A stretch of DNA of 60,307 nt, from IMG/VR virus record IMGVR_UViG_3300006620_000021, one strand, 5' to 3'. Of this stretch, positions 43,600 to 60,307 are shown piece by piece; positions within the stretch are counted from its first letter, which is position 1, and each line of letters opens with the position of its first letter. The notes beneath the pieces were generated by a model, which made no database searches, was not told where the DNA came from, and saw only the letters and a program-made list of their open reading frames with translations. The DNA is from an uncultured virus (IMG/VR IMGVR_UViG_3300006620_000021) (Duplodnaviria > Heunggongvirae > Uroviricota > Caudoviricetes). The position numbers were made by a program, and so were the translations under genes.

Positions 43600-43651
43600 T
43601 TTTTCAACCTCAGGGTACTAATATTGCTATGACAATAGCATGATTTGATTT

Positions 43652-43658
43652 TATTTAT
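43652..43658 (-). promoter_or_regulatory. late promoter core ATAAATA upstream of the GT/carbamoyltransferase/halogenase/heptose run
   Basis: Intergenic ATAAATA. Confidence 0.6.
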
Positions 43659-43663
43659 CCCAA

Positions 43664-44365
43664 TCAAAAAAACATTATTTGAGTGAGACGATCGTATTCC
43701 GTATACATACCAGGTTGCATGATAGCACCATGCACCATATTTGCATCATAGATTATCAATCTATTATACTTCATTGGGCACACATATTGCAACCTTGGTT
43801 TAGGTTTTGGATTATCTTCCGTTGGGTTTTGAACTGTACAGAATCCAGTTCCTGGTACAGAATTTTCTTCACCATACTCTTCAGGAGTATTTAAAAAGAC
43901 TAAAGAACCCCACTTATTGTATGGTCCATCGACGTGGAATATATCATCCCATCTACCAGAGTCAACAATCTCCTTGTCATTCGTGACATTAACAACAAAG
44001 TGCATTGACCTCCATTTATTTGTGAAGTGCTCTTCATCAAATTCAATATGCCAATCCTCATGATTACATAGTTCTTTGAATACACCTGATAGTTGAAGAT
44101 ACAATTCCTCTACAATCTCAGGTTCATCTCTCCATACTCTTCTACCTATTGCACTAGCAAGACGTTCTTCATCAGTATATACAGGAGAATCCAATGCTAG
44201 TTGTCTAACTTCATCTGGATTTTTATAAAAATTATCTATCACAAATATGGGTTTACTTATGATCTCTCTTGTATCATAAAACATTCTCCCATCTTCTAAG
44301 GCATTCCATCGCATTTCTTTGATGGTATCCTTCATCACTCTTAGATCAGAATTAACTTCAAACAT
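43664..44365 (-). CDS. 2OG-Fe(II) oxygenase-like protein (DUF6445-like)
   Basis: VIDNFYKNPDEVR.LA, HVD, W..LVFLN, YNRLIIY....HG, RLTQ. Confidence 0.7.
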   Translation of the reverse strand: MFEVNSDLRVMKDTIKEMRWNALEDGRMFYDTREIISKPIFVIDNFYKNPDEVRQLALDSPVYTDEERLASAIGRRVWRDEPEIVEELYLQLSGVFKELCNHEDWHIEFDEEHFTNKWRSMHFVVNVTNDKEIVDSGRWDDIFHVDGPYNKWGSLVFLNTPEEYGEENSVPGTGFCTVQNPTEDNPKPKPRLQYVCPMKYNRLIIYDANMVHGAIMQPGMYTEYDRLTQIMFF

Positions 44366-44898
44366 TACAACAAAGGTATAGCGCCAAAATTTTGAGTAGG
44401 TGAAGCAGGGAGAGTATAATCTTCCCTAGACATAATATCAAATCCTAAAGTTATTCTTTTACCAGAATACTTTCTTAAATTTACAACTCTATGTGCATGT
44501 TTACCAGGACCAAAATATATGTTACCACATTTATTGTCAATAGTCCAATCCTCAAATTCGGTTACAGTGTCCTGAGGTTCTATGGATATGTAACCATGCC
44601 ACAATGCACTATGATTATGCCACCCAAGCACACTATCATGATCTTGGTAGTTTAACCAAGACTGAATCCAGAGTATGCTTTCGGGCAATTGTTCTCTTAC
44701 AATTTCCCTAACTTTTTCGTAAATTCTATACATGTGTATAGAAGGAGAAGATACCCCAAAGATATTATAGTAAGTGTAAGCCCCCGTGGAATCGGAGAGA
44801 CCATTACTCACTATGTGATCATGGGATATCTTCAGTTCTGTTATTATTTCTTGTTGGTTCTCTTTAATGTAATCAAAGTTATACAGAATATAATTCAT
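44365..44898 (-). CDS. 2OG-Fe(II) oxygenase-like protein
   Basis: QSWLN...WHNH...HGYI, HRV, RITLGFD. Confidence 0.65.
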   Translation of the reverse strand: MNYILYNFDYIKENQQEIITELKISHDHIVSNGLSDSTGAYTYYNIFGVSSPSIHMYRIYEKVREIVREQLPESILWIQSWLNYQDHDSVLGWHNHSALWHGYISIEPQDTVTEFEDWTIDNKCGNIYFGPGKHAHRVVNLRKYSGKRITLGFDIMSREDYTLPASPTQNFGAIPLL

Positions 44899-44935
44899 TC
44901 ACTATGATTCAATTGCTTAATTATATATTATAGCA

Positions 44936-45658
44936 CTATTCAGCAGGATCGCCTTTGCCTGCCGTTGCATCAGAATACTTAGTAGCTGCACTTGGTTGAA
45001 GTGGGAACATGTGCGTAGCAATGTTAGGATCAATGCTTGCAAGAGTTGCTGGCATATCTCTAAGTTTTTGTCTATACGCAGTCCATTCTGCTTTAAGTGC
45101 AGCAGGAGAATCCTCAACGATAGTATTATCACTGGAGTCGAGATGTTTATCTCTTACCATTTTGATATCATCCCAGGTAACATCTCTCTCAGTTCCGCAA
45201 ATAGATTGACTTACAGTTCTGGTTTTGACCTCTATCTTACCAGTCTCAAGGTTTTTGGATACTTCTGTACCATCATAGATATCATTAGGTTTTGGTGGTC
45301 CCCAAACCTTCAGCTGCTCATAACCCTCAATAGCAGGGGATTGTGGATGAGCAGTAGGAGTCTCATCATACTCTTCTTGTCTAGAGTCATCGATTGGTCC
45401 TCTTAACTGACAGACAAGAGGATCGGTAGAACAATCTACCTCAAACCACTCTGCAACATCCTCAGGAACGGGTCTACCGTCCACAATATCTTCTTCGGTT
45501 AAAGGACCATACTTCTCTTTGCCGTCCGCACCCAGTTGGAGCCAGATTTTATCTGGACCATGGTACGTAAATTTACGAGTTTTTCCTTCAGACTGAGAAT
45601 GGTCTACTTGGTATTCGTTGGGGAGACCCAGATCAAATTCTATAGAAACTTGTGCCAT
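44936..45658 (-). CDS. tail fibre assembly chaperone-like protein
   Basis: C-terminal W..IK..RD..L..SD......W..YRQKLRD.P....FP..P. Confidence 0.75.
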   Translation of the reverse strand: MAQVSIEFDLGLPNEYQVDHSQSEGKTRKFTYHGPDKIWLQLGADGKEKYGPLTEEDIVDGRPVPEDVAEWFEVDCSTDPLVCQLRGPIDDSRQEEYDETPTAHPQSPAIEGYEQLKVWGPPKPNDIYDGTEVSKNLETGKIEVKTRTVSQSICGTERDVTWDDIKMVRDKHLDSSDNTIVEDSPAALKAEWTAYRQKLRDMPATLASIDPNIATHMFPLQPSAATKYSDATAGKGDPAE

Positions 45659-45698
45659 GGTTATTACTACTTAAAAAAGGTTGACTTACTTTTAATAA

Positions 45699-45706
45699 TA
45701 TTTATA
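45699..45706 (-). promoter_or_regulatory. T4 late promoter TATAAATA
   Basis: Exact consensus overlapping the upstream stop codon. Confidence 0.75.
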
Positions 45707-46490
45707 GGAAACTAATCTTAACTAATCCAGGACCGCCAGTGCCGCCCTTGGCGCAGCAGTTGCTACCACCACAGTATGTGGTCATACCACCCTGCCCACC
45801 ATGTGCATATGGAGAAGTCCAGCAACCACAACGAACCCAACACTCATGGAGTTGAGCTTGAACTTGTGTACCAATAAATGGTGCAGCAGTTGGAGCGTGT
45901 CCAAAGCAGTGACAATGACACTCAGACATGTGAGTAACAAATGATCCTCTATGGTTGCCCATTCCAAAGTCACCACCATGAGCGTTTGGTTCCATACAAC
46001 ATCTACCCCAGTCAGAGTGGCAAGCAGTATTCCAAGAGGAGTTAGCACAACCACCACTACCACCCATGGCACAGAAGTTGCTCAGTCCAGTACCATTAAC
46101 GTAAGATGCACATCCATGACACGCATAACAATCAACACTCTCACATGGGTGAGTGCCACCAGCACAAACTGTGTACTGAGCACCAGCAGTTACTGTAAGC
46201 GTTTTGCTATTATAGTATCCACCTTGGGCACCAGCATAGTGCTGACATCTACCAGTAGAGCACGCTCCGTGACCGTTACCACCTGATCCCCACAGTTCAA
46301 AATGTACTCTCCTAACACCTGCAGGAACAGTCCAGAGACAGCAACATCCAGTTGAGCAACGGTTAGGTGATCCATAGAACCATTTGACACACCAAGTATC
46401 AAATACACCAGTAGCAACAGCAGCTTGTGGGATACTACCATCAACTATTGAATCTGTTAGGATCTTTTTATAGCTAGAGTAAGATGCCAT
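45702..46490 (-). CDS. Cys/Gly-rich virion (fibre-associated) protein, paralog 3
   Basis: 26 Cys in 262 aa; WTVP.GV....FELWG.GG...GG.GLV.I Gly-rich domain. Confidence 0.7.
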   Translation of the reverse strand: MASYSSYKKILTDSIVDGSIPQAAVATGVFDTWCVKWFYGSPNRCSTGCCCLWTVPAGVRRVHFELWGSGGNGHGACSTGRCQHYAGAQGGYYNSKTLTVTAGAQYTVCAGGTHPCESVDCYACHGCASYVNGTGLSNFCAMGGSGGCANSSWNTACHSDWGRCCMEPNAHGGDFGMGNHRGSFVTHMSECHCHCFGHAPTAAPFIGTQVQAQLHECWVRCGCWTSPYAHGGQGGMTTYCGGSNCCAKGGTGGPGLVKISFL

Positions 46491-46522
46491 CTCTTTTTAA
46501 ACCTCTTTATTAATAGTATTTA

Positions 46523-47323
46523 TCAATAGTATGTAATTCTGACCAATCCTGGTCCACCCATGCCACCAGTACCACAGCAGCTGCTGCCACCACAGTAAGA
46601 TGTCATAGCATTCTGTCCACCATGACCATATGGAACGGTCCAGCAACCACAACGCATCCAACAGAAGTTAATAGACATCTGAACTTCCGTACCAATTCTT
46701 GGTGCAGAAGTTGCTCTTGTTGGTTGGTTATGGCAGTGGCAGAATCCCTGACCAAACCACCAGTTTGGAGAACCGAATGCACCTCTGTGACCAATCGTAC
46801 CGAAGTCTCCGCCGTTGCCTCCTGCCTGTAAGCAGCAAGTATTAGTAGAGTGACATGCAGTTGTCCAACTATCGTTAGCACAACCACCAGCACCACCAAT
46901 GGCGCAGAAATTACTTAAATTTGTTCCATTAACATAAGATGCACATCCTTGGCATCCATTACAATCTCTTCTACAACAGTTACCATTGCCAGCAGCACAG
47001 ACTGTATAAGCTGTACCACTAGTAGTGGTAATATACTTAGAGTTATATGCTCCACCTTGAGCTCCAGCATAGTGCTGACATCTACCAGTAGAACATGCTC
47101 CAGCTCCAGATCCTCCCGAACCCCAAATCTCAAAGAATAGATTAGTTACGCCGTCAGGAACAGTCCAGAGACAGCAACATCCAGTTGAGCATGCATTAGG
47201 GGATCCATAAACCCACTTAACACCAAAGGTCTTCCTAGCATCAGGATCTAACTGAGCAGCACCAATAGACGCATCCGAAAAGGATGATCCATCGACCTTC
47301 TTATAACTTGCATACGATGCCAT
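46523..47323 (-). CDS. Cys/Gly-rich virion (fibre-associated) protein, paralog 2
   Basis: Same motif set as neighbours. Confidence 0.7.
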   Translation of the reverse strand: MASYASYKKVDGSSFSDASIGAAQLDPDARKTFGVKWVYGSPNACSTGCCCLWTVPDGVTNLFFEIWGSGGSGAGACSTGRCQHYAGAQGGAYNSKYITTTSGTAYTVCAAGNGNCCRRDCNGCQGCASYVNGTNLSNFCAIGGAGGCANDSWTTACHSTNTCCLQAGGNGGDFGTIGHRGAFGSPNWWFGQGFCHCHNQPTRATSAPRIGTEVQMSINFCWMRCGCWTVPYGHGGQNAMTSYCGGSSCCGTGGMGGPGLVRITYY

Positions 47324-47337
47324 TTTTAGCTGTCTCC

Positions 47338-48123
47338 TTAGAAATAAGTAATTTTAACAACACCAGAACCACCAGTAGTTCCTCTACCACAACAGTTGGA
47401 TCCGCAATATGTAGTCATACCACCCTGTCCACCAGATGCATAAGGAACGTTATTACAACCACAACGCATCCAACACTCAGTAACTTCACCACTAACTCCC
47501 ATGCTGCCCATAAATGGTGCTCCAGCAGAACACTCTCTATGACGATAGCAGTGGCAGTTAAATGAACCAGAGAACGAACCAGGGTGACCGCCCATTGCGA
47601 AGTCACTACTATAAGCAGTTGGGTTTACACAACAAGGACCCCAATCGGAGTAACACATCGTGTTCCAAGAACTGTTAGCACAGCCTCCTTTTCCTCCAAT
47701 GGCACAGAAGTTACTAAGATTGCAACCATTTACATAAGATGAGCAACCTTGGCAGGCATAACACTCAACAGACTGACAGGGATGAACTCCAGCAGCGCAA
47801 ATTGTGTAGGTCCAACCGTCTTGAACACTAATAGTTTTAGTGGTGTAATAACCACCACCAGCGCCAGCATAGTGCTGACATCTGTTATTAACGCACATTC
47901 CGTGACCGTTACCACCTGCGCCCCACAGTTCAAAAGTAACTCTTCTGACACCAGTAGGGACCGTCCAAAGGCAGCAGCAACCTGGAGTGGTTTCACCTAA
48001 ACATCCGCGAATCCACTTGACGGCGTAATTTTTAAAGGCAGAGGGGTCAAGTTTAGCATCGGTGATAGAACCCGTTGGTAAACTCGCCCCACTTACTTTT
48101 TTGTAACTTGCGTAGGTAGCCAT
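47338..48123 (-). CDS. Cys/Gly-rich virion (fibre-associated) protein, paralog 1
   Basis: Same motif set; preceded by a late promoter. Confidence 0.7.
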   Translation of the reverse strand: MATYASYKKVSGASLPTGSITDAKLDPSAFKNYAVKWIRGCLGETTPGCCCLWTVPTGVRRVTFELWGAGGNGHGMCVNNRCQHYAGAGGGYYTTKTISVQDGWTYTICAAGVHPCQSVECYACQGCSSYVNGCNLSNFCAIGGKGGCANSSWNTMCYSDWGPCCVNPTAYSSDFAMGGHPGSFSGSFNCHCYRHRECSAGAPFMGSMGVSGEVTECWMRCGCNNVPYASGGQGGMTTYCGSNCCGRGTTGGSGVVKITYF

Positions 48124-48141
48124 TTCTTAATCCACTGTTCG

Positions 48142-48154
48142 TATTTATATTTAT
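48142..48154 (-). promoter_or_regulatory. tandem late promoter (ATAAATATAAATA)
   Basis: Contains exact TATAAATA. Confidence 0.75.
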
Positions 48155-48157
48155 GGA

Positions 48158-48180
48158 TAAAGGGGGCATTGCTGCCCCCT
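48158..48180 (-). terminator. intrinsic terminator after the tail fibre gene
   Basis: AGGGGGCA-GCAA-TGCCCCCT with a GNRA loop and a short T run. Confidence 0.72.
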
Positions 48181-48194
48181 GAGTGTCTCTTCTA

Positions 48195-51100
48195 TTAGAC
48201 GGTGAAGAGTCTCCAACCGTAAGTATCGTTGTAGAATACCAGATCGAATGCGGCACCCTCTGCGCCTACTGTCATGTCGGAAGCATCACCCATAATCAAC
48301 TTGCCATTTCTAGCAATGGTGAGGTTATTAGAATCAAACGTCTTAGCAACGTCGAAGAATCTAACGGTGTCGCCCTTGTTAGGTGAACCAGGCAGAGTAA
48401 CAGTGAATCCACCACCAGTTGTATCACACCATACTGCAGAGAATGCAGCGGCAGAAGTGCTGCTGTTAGCATCAACGTGCTGGAGACCACCAATGGGCAC
48501 CCAAGCAGAACCGTTGTATGCTTCATGAGTTCCGAGAGATGTGTTAAATCTCAGACCACCTTGAATTGGAGCAGCAGGTCTTTGTGCAGTTGTTCCCTTA
48601 GGTGGAACCATCTGCTCAACACCCATGTTGCCTCTTTGCAGGAATCCGCGAACCGCGAATTCAGTTGGGCAAGCGGTGTTAGAGTTACCACTCATGGTCT
48701 CGTCAGAGGAGAACTCGTTGATCGCCTCACCAATCTGACCACCCAGTGAACCCAGTCTCAGTTCTGTCAAACCAGACAGGTTGAACGCGGAAGCGTCCAG
48801 GGTAGCAGCACCAGTCAACTGGTTAACGGAGAAGAAGTCACCAACTCTGAAGTTACCACCTTGGTCAGTAGACACGAAGAACACTCTACCAGGACCAAAG
48901 TTGCTAGTCTCATTACCCTGTTGTACGTTTGCCTCGTTAACATTTGGATAGTTGGTTTCAATCTTGTTACCAACACCAATCGAGAGGAAATCGTGACCAG
49001 TCAGACGTGCGTTAGAGAATCTAGTTCTAATCTCAACCAGTGAACCACCATCAGTAATAGTGTTACCAGTTCCTGTACGAGTATCAGGTGTTCTGATTCC
49101 CTTCTCAGGTGATACAGTAACGGTTACACGACCAGGATAGTTAACAGGTGATTCACCAATGTCACCTCTATGCTGAGTATAAGTTGTGGTGAATCCAGTT
49201 ACGTTGTTAATAATATAGAATCTTGGTTGATCATTGACAAGATCACTACCAATACCAGTAGTAGTAATACCAATAGCATCACCCACAAGTGGTAAGTTAT
49301 TACCATCAGCAAGGTCAAGTTCAAAGAGAACGCCTTTCTGACCACCAACAGTTCCACTAACAGCAGAGAGTTGAATAGCACCAGTTGTACCAGCGCCGAT
49401 GAAGTTAACCCACTCACCAGGTACGAAGGAGGTAGTACCAATACCAACAGTTTGACCAGCACCAACGCTAGGATCACCGTAACCAGGATAGTACTTGAAG
49501 TAGATCGCATCAGCGGAGATTTGATCGTTGAGGAAGGTTGCTCTTGCACCAGAGGTTCCACCAACCATGGTGTTACCGACTGCAACAGTACCACTTACAG
49601 TACCAACTGCAGTCTCTGCCTTATCACCGAAGAGTCTCAGGGATCTTGGAGTCTCAGCAGTAGAGAATCCAGATGCAATAACGCCATAGTCACCGTAAGA
49701 GTTGTTACCACCAACACCACGAATTCTAGAACCACCACCTGCGTAATAACCCCACTTACAGTAGTACGTGAAGGAGGAGACGATCTCAGAACCAGCGTCA
49801 GCATCAAGAATAAATCCAGCACCATCACTCAGAACGTTCGTGAAGGCGTCAAAGACCATCGTGCGGAATCCAGAATCATGGACACCACCATCACAAAGAA
49901 CACCAACACCAGCACCACCAGTACCACCATCAGTTGGAGGATTACCGAACGCAGTACAGTCCTTAACGTAAGGTGACTTGTTCAGAATTGGGGAGTTGGG
50001 GTTGAATGCGAAGTAAATACCGCAAGCAGTTGTACCAATACCAGTTCTAATAGTAGAATACTCTAACTGATAAGGATAGGAAGGATCATAATCAAATCCA
50101 ACCATACCATCAACGTTCAGACCTTGAATCGTTGTTGCGTCAGACAGTTGGAACATGGTCTGACGGTTGTTAGGAGTTGTACCGTCAGCAGACAGACCAG
50201 AAGCAGGTCTGATCTTAGAAGATCTCAGCGTAGAACCAACAACAGAGGTGAATGGAGGAACAACAATTGGAAGTTGCTCAACAAATTCCGAGGAAGACAG
50301 TTTAACAACAGCAGGAGACAGGTTCAGAACTTCTCCACCTTGTACATAAGTATGGGTAATTGTCGATACACCAGCGTTAATTGTAAATACGTTGTTATCA
50401 ACAACATCAATAACGTTGAAGTAAGAAGTCAGAACGTTTCTTGGGAAGAAGGAAGTATCAACACCAACAAATACAGTACCGCCAGAGACGTATACGTGTG
50501 GAATTGTTGATACACCAACTGCCATCTCAATCTGCTGAGGACCGTTGATTGCACTTACAGTGAAGTTAAAACCAGCTTCTCTTGTTCCGTCAGGGAATAT
50601 AGTCGTCGTAATACCAGAACCACCTGGGCAGGTGAATTCAAGGTTGTCCAGTCTGATAGTATCTCCAACATTGAGACCAGTCATTGCTGCACCAACGGTA
50701 CAGGTAGCAACACCCGCTACGTTATCGTATTGGAATGCGTTAACAGCATAAGTATTTGCACCAGAGAGGCAAGTAAACTCAATATCTCTCAGTCTAACGG
50801 TAATATTTGGATAAAGAATACCGTGGTTTGGTGCTGTAACTGTGGACAGACCAGTTGCTTCATCATAAATGAAGTTTGTAATATTTGTAATCGCGCTTGC
50901 GTTATCACATGCAACCTTCAGCGTTCTAAACGCCATATCTGGGGTGCTACCATTGAAGGTATCCTTACCCAGTTCGGGGTCAACGTGATAAATTCTAGTG
51001 GAATCACCGATGGTCATCCAGACAGGAACATTATCTGTTCCAATACCCAGAGACTGATATGTCATTCCGACACCCAGTCTGGTTGGAGCAGTGTTATCTC

Positions 51101-52010
51101 TGATCAGAATGTCACCAGTTTGTGTCAGCAGAGCATTGGAGTCGCCCAGTGCAAGTGCTGCCCAAATGGTTTGATTAGAACCAGGAACAATATTCGTAAA
51201 AGAGGTAGATCCAATACCAACGTAAGATGATGATGCATATTCAACTACATCATTTCTAAAATACTCAGTCGCTGTAGAGTATGTACCAGCATATCTTAGA
51301 CCTGTATTAAACAGTTCCCATGCAGTTTGTGCAATACCAACAGTAGTAGAACCAATACCAGTGGTCAGACCCTTAGTTGGGTGAACATCTTGTGCAGATG
51401 TTGCCGTCAACTGATAAGTATCACCACCGATAGTTGCTAATTGACCCTTATAATAGGTAGCACCAGATTGATAGGTTCCAATACCAGTCGCCTCAAAACC
51501 TTCTGCCAGTACGTTCCAGACAGTTCCAAGGTTTGGAGATGGTGGTTGCCCTGTTGTTGAGGTGGTAATTGCAACATATGAAGTACCAAAATAGGCAACT
51601 ACGTCACCAGTTTCATAGACAGTACCTGGATCCCAGGAACCTTCTCCGTTGAAACCAGAGACATAAGAGACCACGTTGGGGTTATTATCACCCGCAAAAC
51701 GTAATCCAGCGGTAGTTCCAATACCAACAGTAACTCTGTACTGGGTATTACCAAACTTAACAACGTCGTTAACTTTGTAGAATGTTCCCGCAGAATAAGA
51801 TCCTACGTTACGGATACCTTCAGCATGAAGGCTCCAGTAGGATAAATCTGTATCATACCACGTAGTATCACTAGCGGCAGAGGTGTGATTGGTAGTTGCT
51901 ACGTAGGTGTTGGCACCAAACTTGACGATATCATCAATGACGTATTCGGTGCTAGGAGCCCAGTCGCCTCTCCAATTGAATTTTAGTCTTCCTAATCTAA
52001 AATCAGCCAT
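48195..52010 (-). CDS. long tail fibre / virion structural protein
   Basis: N-terminal W.....Y...D.V.....Y repeats, pectin-lyase-like central region, GTTAQRP and C-terminal TLPGSPNKGD domain. Confidence 0.8.
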   Translation of the reverse strand: MADFRLGRLKFNWRGDWAPSTEYVIDDIVKFGANTYVATTNHTSAASDTTWYDTDLSYWSLHAEGIRNVGSYSAGTFYKVNDVVKFGNTQYRVTVGIGTTAGLRFAGDNNPNVVSYVSGFNGEGSWDPGTVYETGDVVAYFGTSYVAITTSTTGQPPSPNLGTVWNVLAEGFEATGIGTYQSGATYYKGQLATIGGDTYQLTATSAQDVHPTKGLTTGIGSTTVGIAQTAWELFNTGLRYAGTYSTATEYFRNDVVEYASSSYVGIGSTSFTNIVPGSNQTIWAALALGDSNALLTQTGDILIRDNTAPTRLGVGMTYQSLGIGTDNVPVWMTIGDSTRIYHVDPELGKDTFNGSTPDMAFRTLKVACDNASAITNITNFIYDEATGLSTVTAPNHGILYPNITVRLRDIEFTCLSGANTYAVNAFQYDNVAGVATCTVGAAMTGLNVGDTIRLDNLEFTCPGGSGITTTIFPDGTREAGFNFTVSAINGPQQIEMAVGVSTIPHVYVSGGTVFVGVDTSFFPRNVLTSYFNVIDVVDNNVFTINAGVSTITHTYVQGGEVLNLSPAVVKLSSSEFVEQLPIVVPPFTSVVGSTLRSSKIRPASGLSADGTTPNNRQTMFQLSDATTIQGLNVDGMVGFDYDPSYPYQLEYSTIRTGIGTTACGIYFAFNPNSPILNKSPYVKDCTAFGNPPTDGGTGGAGVGVLCDGGVHDSGFRTMVFDAFTNVLSDGAGFILDADAGSEIVSSFTYYCKWGYYAGGGSRIRGVGGNNSYGDYGVIASGFSTAETPRSLRLFGDKAETAVGTVSGTVAVGNTMVGGTSGARATFLNDQISADAIYFKYYPGYGDPSVGAGQTVGIGTTSFVPGEWVNFIGAGTTGAIQLSAVSGTVGGQKGVLFELDLADGNNLPLVGDAIGITTTGIGSDLVNDQPRFYIINNVTGFTTTYTQHRGDIGESPVNYPGRVTVTVSPEKGIRTPDTRTGTGNTITDGGSLVEIRTRFSNARLTGHDFLSIGVGNKIETNYPNVNEANVQQGNETSNFGPGRVFFVSTDQGGNFRVGDFFSVNQLTGAATLDASAFNLSGLTELRLGSLGGQIGEAINEFSSDETMSGNSNTACPTEFAVRGFLQRGNMGVEQMVPPKGTTAQRPAAPIQGGLRFNTSLGTHEAYNGSAWVPIGGLQHVDANSSTSAAAFSAVWCDTTGGGFTVTLPGSPNKGDTVRFFDVAKTFDSNNLTIARNGKLIMGDASDMTVGAEGAAFDLVFYNDTYGWRLFTV

Positions 52011-52028
52011 TGTTAGTTAATTCCTTTC

Positions 52029-52385
52029 TTACTTAGGTCCTTCGGTTGTGTAATCATATGTGCCGTTAATACGGGCGACAAGGTATCCATCATCATCGAT
52101 GAAATAGTGCAGATTTCTAAAATCAAATCTGTACTGTTGGTATTTATCAAATGGATCATTCCTATAGGATTTGTTCTCCGTAGTTTCATCCACATAATCA
52201 ACGCCATCAAGAAACCCTGGATATTGGGTTCCGTTTGTTCTATGGAAGTCACCTATTTCAGTGCTCCCCGAACCCACTTTCGTGTAGCGCAGCATACCAT
52301 CTGCGTCTCTACGTAGTGCATGTACGATGAAGTCGTTTGATTGAACGACATGTTTCATCGAACCGTCCATTCTACTGAGGTTCAT
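52029..52385 (-). CDS. conserved fibre-locus protein
   Basis: HALRRDADGMLRYTK...DKYQQYRFD...YFIDDDGYLVAR. Confidence 0.65.
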   Translation of the reverse strand: MNLSRMDGSMKHVVQSNDFIVHALRRDADGMLRYTKVGSGSTEIGDFHRTNGTQYPGFLDGVDYVDETTENKSYRNDPFDKYQQYRFDFRNLHYFIDDDGYLVARINGTYDYTTEGPK

Positions 52386-52840
52386 GAGAACATCCTCCAG
52401 AAAGTTCCTTCCCAAATAAGCTCGACATAACCACCAGCAACGTCACAATTTAAAAATGTATCGATGAACCCAGTGCTGTCTTTTATTTGGTCTCCACCTT
52501 GAGCATATACTGTAAGATTATTTATATTCCAGGTGTATTTGGAATCTGCAAGATGAATAGTATCTCCTACAAATCGAAGTGTCGGTAAATTTACTGCAAA
52601 AGGACCCGCTGAGGTATCACTGAAGTATTTCATATTGGTTCTCAATGTATCGTTATTATTAGAACCATCTAAATCAGTCAATCGAGATTTTTGTATCTCT
52701 ACTCCAGACAATGTGAGTCCATCATGAACTCTAATCGTCCCTTTATCAGTATCAAAAGTTACTTCAGCTAAAGCACCTGTAAATGTTGAGTGCTCCAACT
52801 CCGTTCCTTTACGCAGTTGTACCCGTTTGGTGTTAGCCAT
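52382..52840 (-). CDS. short fibre adaptor-like protein (Mtd-N-like N-terminus)
   Basis: RVQLRKGT...FTGALAEVT.DTD....VHDG plus DTSAGPFAVNLP...GD domain. Confidence 0.65.
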   Translation of the reverse strand: MANTKRVQLRKGTELEHSTFTGALAEVTFDTDKGTIRVHDGLTLSGVEIQKSRLTDLDGSNNNDTLRTNMKYFSDTSAGPFAVNLPTLRFVGDTIHLADSKYTWNINNLTVYAQGGDQIKDSTGFIDTFLNCDVAGGYVELIWEGTFWRMFS

Positions 52841-52862
52841 TAAAGGTCCACTAATTGCGTTA

Positions 52863-52873
52863 TATTTATTTAT
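52863..52873 (-). promoter_or_regulatory. late promoter core(s) ATAAATAAATA
   Basis: Intergenic, upstream of the fibre genes. Confidence 0.6.
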
Positions 52874-52877
52874 CAGT

Positions 52878-55800
52878 TTAAATAACTACAATTCTTGTAG
52901 GTTGCGGATCTCTGAACTCAATATATCTGGACTTAGTATCCTTAGTTCCCTTCTCAATATCAATGAGACCTTCACCGATAACAGGTGCTGGAGTGAAGGA
53001 CTCTGCTTTTGTTCCAGTAAATCTGACCTTCGGACCTTCTGGGAAGGTTCTGAGTCTGAAGACTGTAATACCTCTGGAGATATCTCCAGGAATTCCATCG
53101 TTGCTGAGACCAATTCTGACCTGACCAACTGCCAGATTCGCAGCAGTAAACTTGACATCTCCACCAACTGTATCTCCACCGATGGTGAAGAGAGTGAACT
53201 TGACTTCGACGTTGGATACACTCTCTGCTCCACCAACAAATCCAGTAAGTGTGCCAGAACCAATCTCGACATTGGTCTCGCTCTCTGCGCCGTTGCCAAC
53301 AACGGTAAAGACATTTCTGAGTCCGCGAGGAACGATGACTCTCGCCTCGGTGGTGCTGGAGAATCCGAAGATCGAACCTGTACCCGCATGTGCGAAGGTT
53401 GATCTCTCGACCAGACTGCCATCGACTTCCAGACCAGGAACTGCGGTTCCTTCTGCTGCAATAGATGCTTTCTCGACTGCAGTACCAGTAACGCTGAAGA
53501 GTGTAGTACGCTCTGGATAATCGAAGACCTTCGCTTCGGTTGTGCTGGAGAATCCAAAGAGTCCACCAGTTGTAACGTGTGGTGCAGGAGTAGTACGCTC
53601 TTGAAGATTGCCAGCGAAGGAGAACAGTGCCTGCTTCTCTTCTGCAACTGCAGTTGCTTCGGTCGAGGAAGCAAATCCGAAGAGAGATCCAAACGCGACC
53701 ATGGAATTGGTCTCGCTCTCTGCAGCATTGCCCTCGAAGGAGAAGAGAGTAGTCTTGTCGATTGGATTGAAGACTGCTGCTTCTGCTGCACCACTGAATC
53801 CATAGAGTCTTCCAGTTCCAACTTCTGGTGCAGGAGTGAAGGACTCGTCCAGTTCGCCATGAACTTCGACAGGTTGCAGACCAGTCTCGGTAACTTTGAG
53901 TTGGAAGGTAGTGAATGCCTCGTCTGGCAGGAATCTTGCCTGAACAAACTTCTGCTCGGAGAACGTGAGCAGAGGAGTATCGACCTGACCTGTAAATGTG
54001 AACAGAGTAAAGTCGTCTGGTGGATTTGAACCAACTGCTTCTGCAGCACCACCAATTCCACCAAATAGTTTTCCAAATCCTTCTGGAATGAATGGAGTGA
54101 AGGATTCTGGTTCGATTCTGACACCAGAATCGCGGACGAAGATAGCACCAGCACCAGTGTGCTTGGGCAGAACAAAGATCTTGGGTGATCCTCTGAGCAG
54201 CAGGTGGGTAGTCTCGACTGTCTCCCAAGCGAAGCTGAACTGAACGTCTGTAACAGCGCCAGAGAATCCGAAGAGTGCCTTCTTCTTCGCAGGTACAAAT
54301 GTTGCTGCCTCGGTAAAGGAGACGAACGAGAAGATAGATCCGCGACCAGCAGGAATCCATGGGGTGAAGGATTCTGGTTCGATTCTGACACCAGAATCGC
54401 GAATAAAGATGGTGCCACTTCCAGTCTCTTCTTGACCAGTTGCCTCTCCAGATCCCTCGATACCAAAGAGAGATCCACTTGCTGCCCAAGCAGCGGTGAA
54501 CTTGAGTTCGGATTCTTGCTCTTCAACTGCACTGATGCGAAGACCACCATCGATTGCAAACAGAGGATGTACCTTCGCAGGTACAAATGCAACTCTCTCA
54601 CTGAAGGTAACGTAACTGAAGAGAGAACCAGATCCAATCTCAGTTGCAGGAGTCGTAGACTCTGCAGCGTTGCCTTCAAATCCAAACAGTGCTTTCTTCT
54701 TACCAGGTACGAAGGTGACTGCCTCTGCAGCACCAACGATAGATCCAAGAGAACCAGAACCAGTGTAGTTACCCTTACCAAAGGACTCAGTAAAGGTGCT
54801 AACGAACTGAAGTTGCAGACCTTGAGGTTCAAGACAATCGTCTGGATGAAGATCGCCGTAATCTTCGTGATTGTACTGATAGTATTGATTTACATAACCG
54901 TAATCGATCGCGTTTGGTACTCTTCCAAACTCAGATACAACTTCATTAGCAAGAGAACTGACAGGATCATTGAGATATCCAAGCAGTGCTGGAGATTCTT
55001 CGACGTTGTAGACAGACTCACTGACGAATCCATAATCATCACCTTCACATGTGCCGAAGGAAGAATCCTGATTGTAATGGAAGGTGATGGACTCAGCAGC
55101 ACCATCAAATCCACCAATAGATCCAGATCCAACTTCACTAAAGATTCTACTCTCAACAACTTCACCATGTATGGAGAAGATACCCTCATTGATAGTAGTA
55201 ATTCTAATCGATACTGAAGTAGAATCAAATCCGAAGAGTGTTCCAACTCCGTCGTAGTTGCCCTTACCAAACTTCTCAATGAGTTCACCTTCAAAGTTGA
55301 AGAGTGCTCTATCATCTTTAGCAGGTACGAATGCAACGGCTTCCGCTCCTCCAGATAGAGTGGGTAGATTACCAGTACCAACCCAATCTCTCGCTCTGCT
55401 GAAGGTTGTGTCGCCTCTGAGTTTAACAAGGTCACCCTTAGAGGTGAACTTAGGCAGAACGTATACCTTACCAGTACCAAGAACTCTAATGTGACCGTGG
55501 TCAGCATTACCAATAAAGTTTCTAACTCTTGGAGTCTCAGTAGAACTATGAAGTCTACCAAGTCCGAAGGGAAGTCTTGTTGTGGTAGGAGCAAGTGTAC
55601 CGAAGTCTTCTGTCTGCCAAGGATAGTAGATCTCATCGTAACTTACATCACCATAGTCTTCTGCAACGGTGATTGTATCAGTGATGAATCCATAATCAAT
55701 AGACTCAACATTGACAACAGAAGACAGGTTGTATGCAAATGCTCTTCTATTGATCTCTTTGTTGTTGAAGGAGAAGACTCTATCAACCTGATTGAAGATG

Positions 55801-57485
55801 ACCTCATAGAATGCACCACCCTGTACCAGGATGTCCTCTTCACTAACACCAACTTCACTGCGGACTGCCTTGAAGGTTGCCTCACTCTTAAGACCGAAGA
55901 GTCCACCAGCTTCATTGAGGACAGCAGTAGACTCTGCACCCTGAGCAAATCCGAAGAGAGATCCACCACGGAATCTATTGGGATAGAAGTCCCAACCACC
56001 GTCTGCCTTGTAGTGCATCCTGATCTGGACGCGAGGCGTACCATCAATATTAATCCAACCAGATCCTTGATGCTTAGGAATGGTGTAATCAATTGCAGTA
56101 CCAACAAGTCTGGGTTGCTTATTACCAACAGATCCAGTGTAGTTGCCCTTGATGAAGCTCTCTGCTGCACCACCACTGAATGGCATTCTGCCAGTTGCTG
56201 CCTTGGTAGTAACATCAACACTGATAAGACCAAAGTCATCTTCACTGAGTCCAGTGCCAACTGTAGTCTCAACAAATTGTATATCTTTGACTCCCCAATG
56301 GTCAAAGCTAAGACCGTCAAAAGTACTATTAGTTAACTGAATAAATCTAAATCTCTGCCCGTAATTTTTTGCTGCCTCGGGAAGAGTGACATTATAAGTT
56401 CTTAATTCATTATAGATGCTGGATAACCAGTTGTATACTCGGAGTGCAACCCAAGTACCATCTTCTTTTTGATACTGAAGTCTTAAATCCTCACCAAAAT
56501 CTGGTTCTTCACCACCATTACTTCCGCTACCCTTAATAACCTGGGTAATAATACTATCCAGATGTCTAGTATCAGATTCAAACTCAAAATATCTCTGATG
56601 ATTATATCCACCAGGATTTGTATATCTTGGTGGATATCCTCTAAATGCTATATGGGGACCAATATCAAATCCACCAGTAATTCCAGATCCAGTTCCACCC
56701 TGCTCAATAGAAGTAGAGAAGAATACGGACTGGTATGAAGGATCTGTAAGATCATTCGGTTCAATAGTGAACGGATGACCTGTAAGAGTTTGAATATAAT
56801 TAACGTCTCCGTAGTCTTCGCTCCTCAATACAGTCTCATTGAGGAATCCGAAGTCATCGGATCTAAAGTCTATTGCATCTTGTTCATCAAACAGATAAGA
56901 TCTACGCTCGCCTGCTTCGCCAATGATGTCGAAGATTCGATCTTGCTGATTGAATATTACTTCTGTCTTCGCTGAACCTTTTGTGGAAAGGTGGAAGATG
57001 GATGTAGGTGGTGTAGAGATGACCGCATCCAGAGCTTCCGCCCCGACTGGAGGCAAGACGCCTCTTCCCAACCAGGAAGAGGTAGTCTTGTCAACGGCAA
57101 CGCCTTGGAAGTCAAATACCCTATCAACTGGGTTGAAGAATACCTCGGTTATTGCTCGTCCGAACAGTGCGAACTCGACACCACCAACACTTACTCTTGT
57201 GGTATTGTCGTCTGCTGACAAGTGGATACCGATCTTACCCATCGGTATGCTAGCTGTATCTAGCGTGATAGTTCCAAAGTCTTGGATCTGATAGTATTGT
57301 TCGATGGAAGCAGTGATCTCACCGTAGTCTTCTGCTTCTACTACCGCATCGGTAATACTACCATAACTAAGTTCCTCATAATTGAGGATAGAAAATTGAT
57401 TATACGAATATACCGCTCTCTGTACGGTAAAACGATTACCTAGAGAACGGAGGCTACCTATTCCTTCATATTGGAATAACGCCAT
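52878..57485 (-). CDS. large repetitive virion structural protein
   Basis: EDYG/DFG repeats and approx. 45-aa G.G.LF.F...AE repeats. Confidence 0.8.
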   Translation of the reverse strand: MALFQYEGIGSLRSLGNRFTVQRAVYSYNQFSILNYEELSYGSITDAVVEAEDYGEITASIEQYYQIQDFGTITLDTASIPMGKIGIHLSADDNTTRVSVGGVEFALFGRAITEVFFNPVDRVFDFQGVAVDKTTSSWLGRGVLPPVGAEALDAVISTPPTSIFHLSTKGSAKTEVIFNQQDRIFDIIGEAGERRSYLFDEQDAIDFRSDDFGFLNETVLRSEDYGDVNYIQTLTGHPFTIEPNDLTDPSYQSVFFSTSIEQGGTGSGITGGFDIGPHIAFRGYPPRYTNPGGYNHQRYFEFESDTRHLDSIITQVIKGSGSNGGEEPDFGEDLRLQYQKEDGTWVALRVYNWLSSIYNELRTYNVTLPEAAKNYGQRFRFIQLTNSTFDGLSFDHWGVKDIQFVETTVGTGLSEDDFGLISVDVTTKAATGRMPFSGGAAESFIKGNYTGSVGNKQPRLVGTAIDYTIPKHQGSGWINIDGTPRVQIRMHYKADGGWDFYPNRFRGGSLFGFAQGAESTAVLNEAGGLFGLKSEATFKAVRSEVGVSEEDILVQGGAFYEVIFNQVDRVFSFNNKEINRRAFAYNLSSVVNVESIDYGFITDTITVAEDYGDVSYDEIYYPWQTEDFGTLAPTTTRLPFGLGRLHSSTETPRVRNFIGNADHGHIRVLGTGKVYVLPKFTSKGDLVKLRGDTTFSRARDWVGTGNLPTLSGGAEAVAFVPAKDDRALFNFEGELIEKFGKGNYDGVGTLFGFDSTSVSIRITTINEGIFSIHGEVVESRIFSEVGSGSIGGFDGAAESITFHYNQDSSFGTCEGDDYGFVSESVYNVEESPALLGYLNDPVSSLANEVVSEFGRVPNAIDYGYVNQYYQYNHEDYGDLHPDDCLEPQGLQLQFVSTFTESFGKGNYTGSGSLGSIVGAAEAVTFVPGKKKALFGFEGNAAESTTPATEIGSGSLFSYVTFSERVAFVPAKVHPLFAIDGGLRISAVEEQESELKFTAAWAASGSLFGIEGSGEATGQEETGSGTIFIRDSGVRIEPESFTPWIPAGRGSIFSFVSFTEAATFVPAKKKALFGFSGAVTDVQFSFAWETVETTHLLLRGSPKIFVLPKHTGAGAIFVRDSGVRIEPESFTPFIPEGFGKLFGGIGGAAEAVGSNPPDDFTLFTFTGQVDTPLLTFSEQKFVQARFLPDEAFTTFQLKVTETGLQPVEVHGELDESFTPAPEVGTGRLYGFSGAAEAAVFNPIDKTTLFSFEGNAAESETNSMVAFGSLFGFASSTEATAVAEEKQALFSFAGNLQERTTPAPHVTTGGLFGFSSTTEAKVFDYPERTTLFSVTGTAVEKASIAAEGTAVPGLEVDGSLVERSTFAHAGTGSIFGFSSTTEARVIVPRGLRNVFTVVGNGAESETNVEIGSGTLTGFVGGAESVSNVEVKFTLFTIGGDTVGGDVKFTAANLAVGQVRIGLSNDGIPGDISRGITVFRLRTFPEGPKVRFTGTKAESFTPAPVIGEGLIDIEKGTKDTKSRYIEFRDPQPTRIVVI
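54097..54401. repeat. 38-nt exact direct repeat (54097-54134 and 54364-54401) containing a hairpin
   Basis: gtgaaggattctggttcgattctgacaccagaatcgcg twice; internal cgattctg-acac-cagaatcg. Confidence 0.85.
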
Positions 57486-57501
57486 CTACTCGCGCTTTCT
57501 T

Positions 57502-58416
57502 TTATTTAGTAAACCTAGGATATAACTGTCCTGTGACTGGTCTATTTTCATTGGATGCATCACGCGCAGAAGATATTTTATCCGACAAATCATAGTTGTT
57601 AATTGTTCTCGTTCCCATGGTTTGTGTGATTAAACTTCTGTTACGAGATTGATCATACAGAACTCTAACCTCAGGATCACCCAAATGCCTATCGCGATAT
57701 ATTCTTACAAGATCAATTTTACCTACAAAAGTAAGTCCAGCCGATGCAGCATACCTTCCAATTAAAAAATCTAATGTAGGTTCAATTGGAGCGGCATAAG
57801 TATCCTCGACTCCAAGTTTTCCATTCATCCACCACTTAATTACACCATCTCTTCTAGTAACAACCATATGGTAATCAGTATTAAGAGATATTGTCTCTGG
57901 ATATATCCAATCATTAGATTCACCATTTATCGCAAGTGTCATGCCACCATTAGAACTAATGAATATAATAAATTTATTATTACTATCACCAAATGTAGTC
58001 CAACTTGCAATTAATGCTGATGGATATGTTGCATTTGGAGTTCCAGTCATATTAAAAGACATCTCTATTGCAAAATCACCAATAAGATTAAAGTCTTCAC
58101 TGTCAGTTAAAGTTGCATAGTTGCCAGAATTAAAAACAACACTTCTACCATCATAAGAAGTGCCAGTAAACGTGGCATTATTTTGAGGTTTAGTTAGATC
58201 ATACCAGATACCACTAGTTTGGACTCCAACATTAACATTACCTGGAACATTTATCAATGAATCATTATTCATTGAGTCCAATTCCAAAAGTAAATTAGTT
58301 GTATATCCAACTCTATTATACTGTCTTGCAAATCTTATCTCAGTAGATCTAGATACTGTAGAAGCAATCCCAACAACAGCAGTAGTTAAATTTGGAAATG
58401 AATAGTTTGCCATCAA
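57502..58416 (-). CDS. LamG/concanavalin-A-like domain virion protein
   Basis: L.L.LD, WYDL, YH.VVTR, F.GKI..VRIY...L...EV..LY. Confidence 0.75.
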   Translation of the reverse strand: MMANYSFPNLTTAVVGIASTVSRSTEIRFARQYNRVGYTTNLLLELDSMNNDSLINVPGNVNVGVQTSGIWYDLTKPQNNATFTGTSYDGRSVVFNSGNYATLTDSEDFNLIGDFAIEMSFNMTGTPNATYPSALIASWTTFGDSNNKFIIFISSNGGMTLAINGESNDWIYPETISLNTDYHMVVTRRDGVIKWWMNGKLGVEDTYAAPIEPTLDFLIGRYAASAGLTFVGKIDLVRIYRDRHLGDPEVRVLYDQSRNRSLITQTMGTRTINNYDLSDKISSARDASNENRPVTGQLYPRFTK

Positions 58417-60307
58417 ACTACCCTCGCACAGAATAAAACACCTCTTGTTACCGTAGTCTGACTATATGATCCATCAATTACCTTATAAACTTCTGATGGA
58501 CTTACTGTAATAGTATCTCCCTGCTGAATATTAGCGGAAGCAGCATTATAGTAAAACTGAATCAGAACAAAATCATCAGGAATATAGTATGGCATTGGGA
58601 GTAGATTACCATTCAGTGGTAATCCTTTTATTACCGCGTTGAAGTTTGCTTCAGGAGAAACTCTATCCTTACCACTAGTATCACTTGATCCACCAGACCA
58701 ATGCAATGAAATATCAGAGAAGCGCGAGTACAAGCATGGAAAATCATCATCCCAATCAACTGGATATACTCTACTGTGTAGATGATAATCTACATAATTT
58801 TGCATTGCAGTACTATATCCTAAGTAGTGCATATACCCAAATTCTGCCGAACGCTTAGCAGGAGAGTATGTATTATCAGGATCATAAGGTCCAAAATATG
58901 TCCTAAACTGTAACTCTCTAGCACTATCTCCAGTTGATGGTGCCATTATTTCAGTAACTCCACCGAGGAATACATGATCTAAATCCCAAATATCAGTCGT
59001 AAAATTATGCAGTATAAATGTATCATGAGTGTTGCTACTTATAGATGTTGTTGATACTGTAGGAGATCTATAAGAAAATACTGCAAACCTAGGATCAATG
59101 CTAGACCTATAAACATTTAAATCAAGATCAAAATCATCTTGACTTCCATGACTTATACGAACTGTTCTATTGTAACTGCTACTATAAGTATTATTGTTAA
59201 CGTCAAAATCACTATCAGTAATTTCATCTAAATTATAAGATCCATAATCTAAATATCTTGCTCCAGCAAATCTTCTATGCTGCGCTGTAGATCCATGACA
59301 ATCTTTTGTATTTGTATTAGCATAATCTGAACCCACACCATAATGCATATATCCACTACCAGTCGTTATATCTATGGAAGACGAAGACTCGGATTTGAAC
59401 AATGTATATGTATCACCAAATAATTTATTCTCTTGAATAGTACGTCTCACTACTCCCCAAGGAGCATCAGCATTAGATAAATTAGACTGCCAATATGTAC
59501 TCGAAGTTCCAAAACCAACAACTGTCCTATCTCCAGATTCACCACTCCATGGTTGAACAACCAGTCTTCCTAATTCAGCATATCCTGATGTATATCTACT
59601 GTTAAAAAAGTATGTTCCTGCTTGCCCAATTTTAGGAGTGAATGTAGCGGTTTGACCGATACCATTAACTTCAGTAAATCCTGCAATCTGACCCGTGTTC
59701 GATCCTGCCGTCTCAGGTCCTGGTCGTGGTGTTGGGTTTACTAAACAAGCATAGTGTGAATATACAGAATTATCAGCAATAGTTAATGATAGAGTATCAC
59801 CTTCCCTAATAGTAATAACTGTTGCTCCAGCACCAATAGCACCAGTTCTATCAGTCCCTTCAAACAAGTAAGTACCACCACTCAAGTCAGTTAAAGCTAT
59901 AGAAATATTTGACCCATTAGTTACAACCTCATCAACACAAACAGAGAATGATAAATCAGTTGCTCCATTTGAAAATCCACCAAGAGAATCAGCATCAAGA
60001 GTAACTACCTCGCCACTGGTATATCCATATCCAGGACGATTAACATGTACTCGTCTTACCCCGTGAGTATCTCTATAAACATAAAAGCTTGCACCCGTTC
60101 CAATACCTGTTGTGCTTTTGGGGAAGACATCATGATAATCATCAGAAGCATTAGTATCTCCACCACCACTAAAACTGCTAAGACCAACAACAAAACCACT
60201 TCTTTCTCCACCATGCCATCCTAACCAACCAATTGCATCATCCATTTGTTGGATGATATCAGTCTTACCCCATCCTGCGTTTATTTTAAAAGTCTCTGTA
60301 GTAATTG
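58413..60307 (-). CDS. virion structural protein, 5'-truncated by the window edge
   Basis: Frame stays open from 60245 to the edge (ITTETFKINAGWGKTDIIQQM...); G.GY..G repeat; C-terminal YYIPDDFVLI...GDTITVS..EVY.VI. Confidence 0.65.
   Translation of the reverse strand, partial: ITTETFKINAGWGKTDIIQQMDDAIGWLGWHGGERSGFVVGLSSFSGGGDTNASDDYHDVFPKSTTGIGTGASFYVYRDTHGVRRVHVNRPGYGYTSGEVVTLDADSLGGFSNGATDLSFSVCVDEVVTNGSNISIALTDLSGGTYLFEGTDRTGAIGAGATVITIREGDTLSLTIADNSVYSHYACLVNPTPRPGPETAGSNTGQIAGFTEVNGIGQTATFTPKIGQAGTYFFNSRYTSGYAELGRLVVQPWSGESGDRTVVGFGTSSTYWQSNLSNADAPWGVVRRTIQENKLFGDTYTLFKSESSSSIDITTGSGYMHYGVGSDYANTNTKDCHGSTAQHRRFAGARYLDYGSYNLDEITDSDFDVNNNTYSSSYNRTVRISHGSQDDFDLDLNVYRSSIDPRFAVFSYRSPTVSTTSISSNTHDTFILHNFTTDIWDLDHVFLGGVTEIMAPSTGDSARELQFRTYFGPYDPDNTYSPAKRSAEFGYMHYLGYSTAMQNYVDYHLHSRVYPVDWDDDFPCLYSRFSDISLHWSGGSSDTSGKDRVSPEANFNAVIKGLPLNGNLLPMPYYIPDDFVLIQFYYNAASANIQQGDTITVSPSEVYKVIDGSYSQTTVTRGVLFCARVV

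Follow-up and report, generated by a model that had tools for sequence, protein, structure and literature searches.

What keeps some 1.5 kilobases (kb) of a structural gene free of stop codons in all three of its sense frames? The question is raised by a 60,307-nucleotide (nt) stretch of DNA from an uncultured member of the Caudoviricetes (IMG/VR record IMGVR_UViG_3300006620_000021), which is called the window here in its full length. Its source is a T4-like cyanophage, since the genes around the locus match tail, tail-fibre and virion families of the PHROG collection as well as auxiliary genes of cyanophage type. On the minus strand, the main gene (52878..57485, ATG at 57485) encodes a repeat-rich virion structural protein of 1535 amino acids (aa) belonging to PHROG 11522, and within it 1551 nt (52973..54524) contain no TAA, TAG or TGA in any sense frame. 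This triple-open stretch corresponds to main-frame codons 988-1503, which encode a degenerate repeat array. An initial annotation, made from the letters alone, had noticed it and offered three explanations: selection for an overprinted frame rich in Arg, Ser, Trp and Cys, programmed frameshifts giving alternative C-termini, or removal of an RNA motif. The evidence presented here points to a conserved constraint against stop triplets, so far unexplained, for which ribosomes that have left the main frame are the best candidate readers.

Off-frame stop codons are missing from a repeat array

Gene coordinates are counted from the ATG; the −1 frame reads codon positions 3,1′,2′ and the +1 frame positions 2,3,1′. 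All three nested minus-strand open reading frames (ORFs) of the initial annotation were recovered, namely the main one, a +1 ORF of 648 aa (52886..54832) and a −1 ORF of 505 aa (52972..54489), and with them the stretch of about 1.5 kb that is open in three frames. The stop-free run of the −1 frame spans 517 codons (52972..54522, its stop being 52972..52974); that of the +1 frame spans about 668 codons (52886..54889), ends 8 nt before the main stop and is open in all homologues examined. No other triple-open stretch of at least 300 nt exists on either strand of the window. Within the gene, the −1 frame has 120 stops in gene nt 1-2960, none in 2960-4511 and 6 in the last 100 nt, and the +1 frame has 17 in the whole gene and none between gene nt 2593 and 4597.

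As a null model, synonymous codons were permuted inside the 515-codon region, which keeps both the protein and the local codon usage (2000 shuffles). The −1 frame, with 0 stops, compares with 34.7±4.1 in the shuffles (minimum 21), and the +1 frame, also with 0, compares with 4.3±1.4 (2 of 2000 shuffles had zero). When codon usage was taken from the part of the gene upstream, the numbers expected in the region rose to 45.7 (−1) and 13.6 (+1). The longest triple-open run was 182±50 nt in 1000 shuffles made inside 100-codon blocks (maximum 435) and 158±44 nt in 1000 shuffles of the region only (maximum 387), so that the worry that local codon usage might often yield equally long stretches proved unfounded. 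The null is calibrated: for the other 42 ORFs of the window the ratio of observed to expected off-frame stops was 0.99 (+1) and 1.03 (−1), and their longest off-frame gaps were 396 nt and 231 nt, respectively. The neighbouring gene for a 1271-aa tail fibre was normal, with 39 stops against 39.7 expected in +1 and 141 against 130 in −1. In the N-terminal two thirds of the main gene (54890..57485) the −1 stops were also ordinary (120 versus 110.8 expected) and the +1 stops were halved (16 versus 29).

The three antisense frames of the region contained stops as expected, and an antisense overlapping gene was rejected on this ground. The idea of a 'termination zone' was likewise rejected, because −1 stops in the last 32 codons were not enriched (6 versus 5.6 expected). 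An off-frame stop enrichment of the 'ambush' type, to which we return below, is the opposite of what the region shows in both frames (0 against 34.7 and 0 against 4.3). In the window's gene, the −1 translation is basic and rich in Arg, Ser, Trp and Cys (isoelectric point (pI) 10.7, Trp plus Cys 15.5%), and the +1 translation is rich in Leu, Ser and Arg. Overall, alternative-frame translations have a pI of 9.6-10.7 compared to 4.7-5.0 for the main frame, and Trp or Cys makes up 15-18% of the residues in the −1 frame.

The stop-free state is conserved in cyanophage relatives

We collected 28 distinct orthologous genes, including the window's, from viral and metagenome contigs; two were truncated, and the remaining 26 were used (L numbers are our handles for the homologues). 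Divergence among homologues is highest at third codon positions of the main frame, which identifies this frame as the selected protein frame. Whether relatives also keep the other frames open received a different answer for each. The +1 frame is open in practically all relatives: it runs on for about 1650-2016 nt, to the gene end, in every full-length gene, and over about 560 codons it holds no stop in 23 of the 26 genes, one stop in two and four in one, where shuffles expect 3.2-13.4. The −1 frame is open in most and lost in some clades. An open class of 13 genes (the window's, L002, L004, L006, L016, L017, L020-L023, L025, L026 and L033) has stop-free −1 runs of 1077-1782 nt. A closed class of five genes (L001, L005, L018, L024 and L027), 83-88% identical to the window's protein, has 33-38 −1 stops in codons 988-1503 and 40-45 over a wider span, compared to 52-55 from shuffles. 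In a more distant clade of eight genes, 55-60% identical, a stop-free patch of 264-489 nt is found near the 3′ end; these genes have 45-52 −1 stops in the region and 52-64 over the wider span versus 58-70 from shuffles, so that outside the patch their −1 stop density is ordinary. The patch occupies roughly the last 150 codons before the final 30-100 codons. It measures 315-489 nt and ends about 25-320 nt before the gene end in L007, L009-L013, L030-L032 and L035, and only 264 nt in L008.

A maximum-likelihood tree of the core grouped the five closed genes in one clade (support 100/100). This clade branches from within the open class and has a long stem (0.13); the distant clade falls outside the open class. 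The tree was built on the very sites in question, a bias that would draw the closed genes out of the open class and not into it. The open −1 state is probably ancestral, because genes of the S-CAM1 type are open as well, and it would have been lost several times.

The last point refers to cultured phages. A tblastn search with the 1535-aa protein returned Synechococcus phages only, with S-CAM1 and S-CAM3 at 27-28% identity over residues 686-1516. In the window, S-CAM1 and S-CAM3 alike, the giant gene is followed by genes for a 152-aa tail protein, a 128-aa protein and a tail fibre, and by this synteny the main gene is the orthologue of SXBG_00232 of S-CAM1 (2130 aa) and C421010_094 of S-CAM3 (2558 aa). 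In codons 1400-2129 of the S-CAM1 gene there are 0 +1 stops against 9.9 expected and 3 −1 stops against 51; between codons 1060 and 2100, TGA and TAA are absent (39 and 24 expected) and TAG occurs once (23 expected). Off-frame stops are normal in the tail-fibre-like gene of S-CAM1. The same part of the S-CAM3 giant gene contains nested same-strand stop-to-stop ORFs of 657, 400, 455 and 467 codons. Among 21 distinct sequences of distant IMG/VR relatives (23-31% identity), 13 have 0-1 +1 stops versus 7-21 expected and 2-5 −1 stops versus 31-60; three have 1 versus 11-15 and 14 versus 39-49; four have about half of the expected +1 stops and near-normal −1 stops; and one is a short contig end.

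One −1 stop of the S-CAM1 group is old. ATT AGY, read as Ile-Ser in the main frame and located at about 6011..6013 in S-CAM1 (L040), is common to nine of nine genes of this group (including L059-L076), down to 59% protein identity. It divides the otherwise stop-free −1 frame, leaving one run of about 580 codons before it and another of about 490, still stop-free, after it.

The N-terminal two thirds of the main gene encode DYG-type modules, with a beta-sandwich-like domain at about residues 300-420, and the last DYG module lies at the border of the +1 open run. The C-terminal third is the degenerate repeat array, in which LFxFxG-type motifs are spaced by about 20, 40-42 or 61-66 residues (once 31, once 90). 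In the fullest cases the two alternative frames open as a pair after the last DYG module, at nt 3119/3175 in S-CAM1, 2800/2828 in L025 and 1297/1418 in L004. Among full-length open genes (4581-4650 nt), the 5′ ends of the −1 runs are scattered between gene nt 2747 and 3158.

Marine metagenomes from several studies contain the stretch. Two RNA libraries yielded contigs 88-99% alike that cover 22 and 23 of 30 bins; these contigs are silent on frame, starts and level. Paired +1/−1 differences 4-7 nt apart in public contigs were considered as traces of slippage and rejected, as they are local variants of relatives.

Only the three stop triplets are avoided

The initial annotation had stated that no T-ending codon precedes an AAN, AGN or GAN codon in the stretch. 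This rule holds: in three open-class genes pooled, T was found at none of the junctions with AA (78), AG (54) or GA (157), compared to 74% before GG, 38% before AC, 46% before GC and 36% before GT. In two closely related closed genes the values were 32% before AA, 15% before AG and 35% before GA. The avoided set is exactly TAA, TAG and TGA; TGG, TAY and TGY are common at the same junctions, which makes the removal of an RNA motif unlikely. A k-mer scan against synonymous shuffles agreed with this, in that TGA, TAA and TAG alone separated open from closed genes, whereas TTT, CGG and AGG were depleted and TGG was enriched in both alike. Two further biases were seen: TTTT occurs 5 times in the main gene against 41 expected from synonymous shuffles, the strongest depletion of 14 genes tested, and in the C-terminal part of open and closed homologues T stands before a codon starting with TT in 1-4% of cases and before GG in 74-82%.

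Openness of the +1 frame had been attributed to simple avoidance of NTA and NTG codons. The data contradict this, as the region does contain them: five close genes have 70, four distant genes 66 and three genes of the S-CAM1 group 128. Pooled, NTG was followed by A in 0 of 115 cases and NTA by A or G in 3 of 149. The corresponding fractions were 0/48 and 2/22 in the close genes (the two probably being the stop that ends the +1 frame near the gene end), 0/23 and 0/43 in the distant genes, and 0/44 and 1/84 in the S-CAM1 group. After NTY codons, 68-72% of the next bases are A or G. Shuffles that preserve codon usage still expect 3-13 +1 stops where 23 of 26 genes have none.

Open-class pairs differ at 18-27% of third positions in the region, similar to the upstream part. 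We defined at-risk columns as those in which a codon family permitting T is followed by AA, AG or GA in every gene; the core of the 13 open genes contains 34 of them. Twelve are polymorphic and none contains T, compared to 77 of 90 polymorphic control columns (binomial with p=0.86 for 0/12, about 6e-11, a value that is indicative only, as the sequences are related). In the 3′ extension, T was found in 0 of 184 at-risk instances versus 232 of 440 controls. The columns thus bore out the proposal that selection keeps the Arg/Ser/Trp/Cys-rich frame open. Because synonymous sites vary within the open class, yet never to the T that would make a stop, selection against off-frame stops is ongoing.

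Could such a pattern arise with no ribosome ever reading the alternative frames? Either UAA, UAG and UGA would be avoided regardless of frame, on account of a nuclease, a binding protein or promoter-like sites, or the stop-free state would be left over from repeat amplification, since the array could have started stop-free from one amplified unit. Open frames and three trinucleotides avoided on the sense strand are formally inseparable in these data. However, the avoided set equals the release-factor set and spares its neighbours at the same junctions, and the effect is limited to one gene in 60 kb. A leftover of amplification is at odds with the third-position divergence of the open class, which has produced no T at at-risk sites; moreover, the repeats share no long DNA identity suggestive of recent homogenisation, and cross-frame protein comparison finds nothing. 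In that comparison, BLASTP of the two alternative products against the main protein gave best expectation values (E) of 0.083 and 9.2, and reuse of repeat DNA across frames was rejected. We regard the absence of any reading as very unlikely. Because the avoided set is that of the release factors and the effect is specific to strand and gene, something would seem to translate the alternative frames, and where it terminates would matter.

The alternative frames lack the marks of ordinary genes

An alternative-frame ORF that is longer than chance and kept in relatives is what an overprinted gene leads one to expect, and both properties were found here. The overprinted frame of the initial annotation stood in this respect, that is, in its openness and in the selection on it; as an ordinary gene it did not stand, since a conserved start, amino-acid constraint and a drop in synonymous diversity are all missing.

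In the window's region the −1 run contains one ATG and two GTG/TTG codons. No −1 start is conserved: the sole candidate is an ATG in 9 of the 13 open genes, whereas the remaining four and every one of the five closed genes have TTG. Counting canonical starts only, neither of the S-CAM1 −1 stop-to-stop runs (579 and 490 codons) has an ATG, GTG or TTG from which 100 or more codons would follow, and codons 1060-2100 have none at all in this frame. The +1 frame has many potential starts, among them 9 ATG in the window's region and 22 in S-CAM1, none of which is singled out. No conserved Shine-Dalgarno (SD) motif was found for the alternative frames; SD-like motifs are in fact depleted in the main gene more than in the other genes tested (GGAG, 12 versus 29 expected). 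The excess of alternative-frame peptide identity over shuffles was similar in the region and in an upstream control. Synonymous-site conservation, an expected mark of a second coding frame, was not seen either, as sliding synonymous diversity ranged from 0.14 to 0.43 in the region and averaged 0.23 over the gene. The +1 products of the window and S-CAM1 show no similarity and the −1 products are weakly similar (E about 3e-5); neither alternative-frame product matches Pfam or PHROG.

True overprinted genes with their own initiation, above all in the +1 frame, would have to act through composition or length and not through sequence. Such genes would fit ORFs that are far longer than chance and kept by selection, the many ATG, GTG and TTG codons of the +1 frame, and losses limited to certain lineages, which are typical of young overlapping genes. 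The missing conserved start, the S-CAM1 −1 runs devoid of a usable canonical start, the lack of amino-acid constraint and of a synonymous drop, and the dissimilar, unmatched products speak against them, and two genes of 500-1000 codons starting at one border in two frames would be a coincidence. Taken together, we find overprinted genes distinctly unlikely.

No canonical frameshift site is found

Programmed frameshifting in its canonical form, the second proposal of the initial annotation, found no support, as neither a slippery site nor a homopolymer was detected. Heptamers of the type X XXY YYZ are absent from the region in six close genes, the sole matches lying at gene nt 1079 and 1115; none occurs in S-CAM1 or L059, and L076 has one, AAACCCA, at nt 3047. 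Homopolymers of at least 6 are absent from the region in the 11 genes scanned, where transcriptional slippage would call for an A or T run of about 7-9; runs in the S-CAM1 group reach 5 at most, with none at the border. Lys triplets are written AAG AAG AAG, and slippage at Lys runs is not supported. As for a stimulator, no window of clearly reduced synonymous diversity was seen in or just before the region, in an analysis that included no structure search.

Several other ways of using the frames were considered and rejected. Compensated frameshifts as a source of diversity found no support, since a nucleotide alignment of 14 genes has no indels other than multiples of three inside the region. 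Natural variants that use an alternative frame were sought by tblastn of the main protein against all loci, and frame switches appeared only in L020 and the fragment L039, none in the region. Translational coupling to the downstream gene is unlikely, as that gene has a late-promoter-like motif of its own and the alternative frames end at different places. Just upstream of the stretch, at about 54681..54708 (gene nt 2778/2805), gaps of 2 nt and 1 nt stand 27 nt apart relative to L006, L022 and L025, and possibly represent a compensated frameshift or an alignment artefact. The change of frame in L020 (about 1386..2006) occurs at about residue 207, far from the region, and is either a frameshift or an assembly error.

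Recoding of a non-canonical kind would send a share of ribosomes into −1 or +1 near the start of the array and produce functional transframe proteins with basic alternative C-termini. It would fit the observations that distant lineages share the near-coincident opening of the alternative frames just behind the last DYG module, that the stop-free runs end near the gene end, that the −1 frame can be entered by shifting only, and that −1 openness is either kept or lost, as befits a product that is either made or not. It is, however, confronted with the lack of a slippery heptamer, of a homopolymer and of a conserved synonymous patch that could act as stimulator. As the −1 runs start at different places, one common site preceding all of them is not evident; tail sequences are conserved no more than the main frame imposes; and an old conserved stop interrupts the −1 run of the S-CAM1 group, which is nevertheless open beyond it. 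On balance, programmed recoding seems unlikely. The bolder version, in which 1.5-3.3 kb would be read on purpose in three frames with no classical signal, we hold to be a minority possibility. Chimeras with a main-frame N-terminal anchor and, again as a minority view, long tails that are either basic and rich in Trp, Arg and Cys or rich in Leu and Ser would then serve the virion or host takeover.

The gene and its neighbourhood

PHROG 11522, whose function is listed as unknown, is the family of the giant repeat virion protein of T4-like cyanophages, and the 1535-aa protein matches it in five stretches (E=1.3e-52). Other searches with this protein gave little: no Pfam match above cutoff, although the N-terminal part has a Reelin_subrepeat-B match below it; no match in a PDB profile search at E up to 1; and, by megablast, no close match among phage records. 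The ESM Atlas gave weak leads only (score 0.75), with feature-based leads to F5_F8_type_C and MAM clusters that concern the N-terminal part. An AlphaFold2 model of the main-frame C-terminal 636 residues, based on a 20-row alignment, was unusable (mean predicted local distance difference test score, pLDDT, 25.7).

Downstream of the main gene, a spacer of 37 nt (52841..52877, minus strand) contains the motif GATAAATAA. In distant orthologues the spacer measures 36-39 nt and contains GTATAAATA, and a TATAAATA-like motif was present in five of five genes examined. The motif resembles TATAAATA, which we take to be the consensus of the T4-type late promoter; a scan for promoters and terminators found nothing above shuffled expectation. 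The next gene (52382..52840, minus strand) encodes a tail protein of 152 aa (phrog_9648) and has an ordinary density of off-frame stops. Just downstream of the tail-fibre gene stand three tandem paralogues (45702..48123, minus strand; 262, 266 and 261 aa), all of phrog_4205. Adjoining the structural genes, 37417..42465 (minus strand) encodes a carbamoyltransferase (phrog_1601), a tryptophan-halogenase-like protein (phrog_2928) and a heptose kinase/adenylyltransferase-like protein (phrog_7878). Over the whole window (1..60307), a second-order model expects 36 CCGG, 28 GGCC and 138 AGCT, and 0, 3 and 75 were observed, a scarcity that looks like restriction-site avoidance.

Discussion

We tentatively favour, as an explanation that may well hold but falls short of being probable, selection against termination by frameshifted ribosomes inside the repeat array. 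Purifying selection on stop triplets as such would keep the C-terminal array open in both alternative sense frames. Normal initiation gives no access to the −1 frame, and a discrete shift site is absent; the readers of this frame would therefore have to be ribosomes that began in the main frame and then slipped, at no particular site; a slipped ribosome would run on to the gene end instead of terminating within the array. The benefit may lie in assembly. A chain cut inside a self-folding repeat array may still fold, assemble and poison a multimeric virion structure, while a nonsense tail that is long and basic, and rich in Trp and Cys or in Leu, would lead to exclusion or degradation of the chain. 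As to history, the array may have grown by amplification from a unit that was free of off-frame stops by chance, after which selection would have maintained the state and some lineages lost it; with such an origin, about 35 stops would not have had to be cleared one after another.

Slipped ribosomes would account for the involvement of both frames, the missing starts, the unconstrained sequence, the shared border, the persistence past a stop and the purge of slippery and pausing motifs. Both frames opening near one another is to be expected if the border is set by the architecture of the main-frame protein, and selection that persists after the old stop of the S-CAM1 group fits site-by-site selection better than the maintenance of one ORF.

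Several observations weigh against this explanation. The −1 frame behaves as a sharp two-state character in genes that are about 85% identical (0-13 stops in open genes, 33-38 in closed ones), which looks like an ORF that is kept or lost, and diffuse mitigation of errors needs an extra assumption for a closed clade that keeps +1 protection and drops −1 protection. These two points favour non-canonical recoding or overprinted genes. The normal off-frame stops of the neighbouring tail-fibre gene indicate that being a long fibre gene is insufficient. The +1 frame, with its many potential starts, is compatible with an independent ORF. Finally, the proposed benefit would run opposite to the usual 'ambush' expectation, in which off-frame stops end slipped translation early.

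That hypothesis (PMC3700767, PMC5909447, PMC2996987) resembles our proposal in that synonymous codon choice is shaped by the fate of ribosomes after a frameshift error. The sign differs: here off-frame stops are removed, locally in one gene and almost completely.

Other systems share single features with the locus. Transframe products of programmed frameshifting, such as lambda G/GT, T7 gene 10A/10B and influenza PA-X, also rely on an alternative sense frame that is open past some point of a gene, a structural gene here, and is entered only from the main frame. Unlike the cyanophage gene, the known cases have a defined slippery site, usually a stimulator, an extension that is short or non-overlapping, and conservation of the sequence or length of that extension; in the cyanophage gene there is no site, the overlap measures 1.5-3.3 kb and affects both alternative frames, and the tail sequence is free of constraint. 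Same-strand overprinted viral genes, of which phiX174 is an example, share ORFs far beyond codon-permutation nulls, retention in relatives and an odd amino-acid composition. The cyanophage stretch differs from them by having no conserved or available −1 start, no synonymous reduction, no alternative-frame conservation, and both frames open at once. Overlapping genes can be detected by ORF-length permutation tests (PMC6188560). Genes built of simple repeats and all-frame translation of the C9ORF72 type likewise offer a repeat-built coding region open in three frames. Those repeats are short, nearly identical in nucleotides and open by construction, whereas the cyanophage array consists of degenerate units of about 20-40 residues; its homologues differ at 18-27% of third positions, and selection against a single base at specific junctions holds it open. 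In the accessible portions of the literature on cyanophage overlapping genes, phage off-frame stops, S-CAM1 structural repeats, cyanophage ribosome profiling and stop-free repeat frames, we found no description of such a stretch.

For annotation, the locus is a warning that codon-permutation tests can flag long 'overlapping ORFs' that have no start codons. It also provides a signature that can be searched for in other repeat-protein genes, namely a stretch that is stop-free in three frames and whose alternative-frame sequence is unconstrained. If slipped ribosomes are indeed the readers, the fate of wrong-frame ribosomes in one gene can be under strong and very long-lasting selection, in a direction opposite to the textbook expectation. 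The candidates, which are error mitigation protecting virion assembly, programmed recoding that needs no site, and kilobase-long overprinted genes, are testable with S-CAM1 and S-CAM3, which are harmless and can be cultured on marine Synechococcus. Were the stretch truly read in three frames, it would be the longest triple-coded segment known and would reveal a new, site-less form of recoding, conserved across a family of ocean cyanophages.

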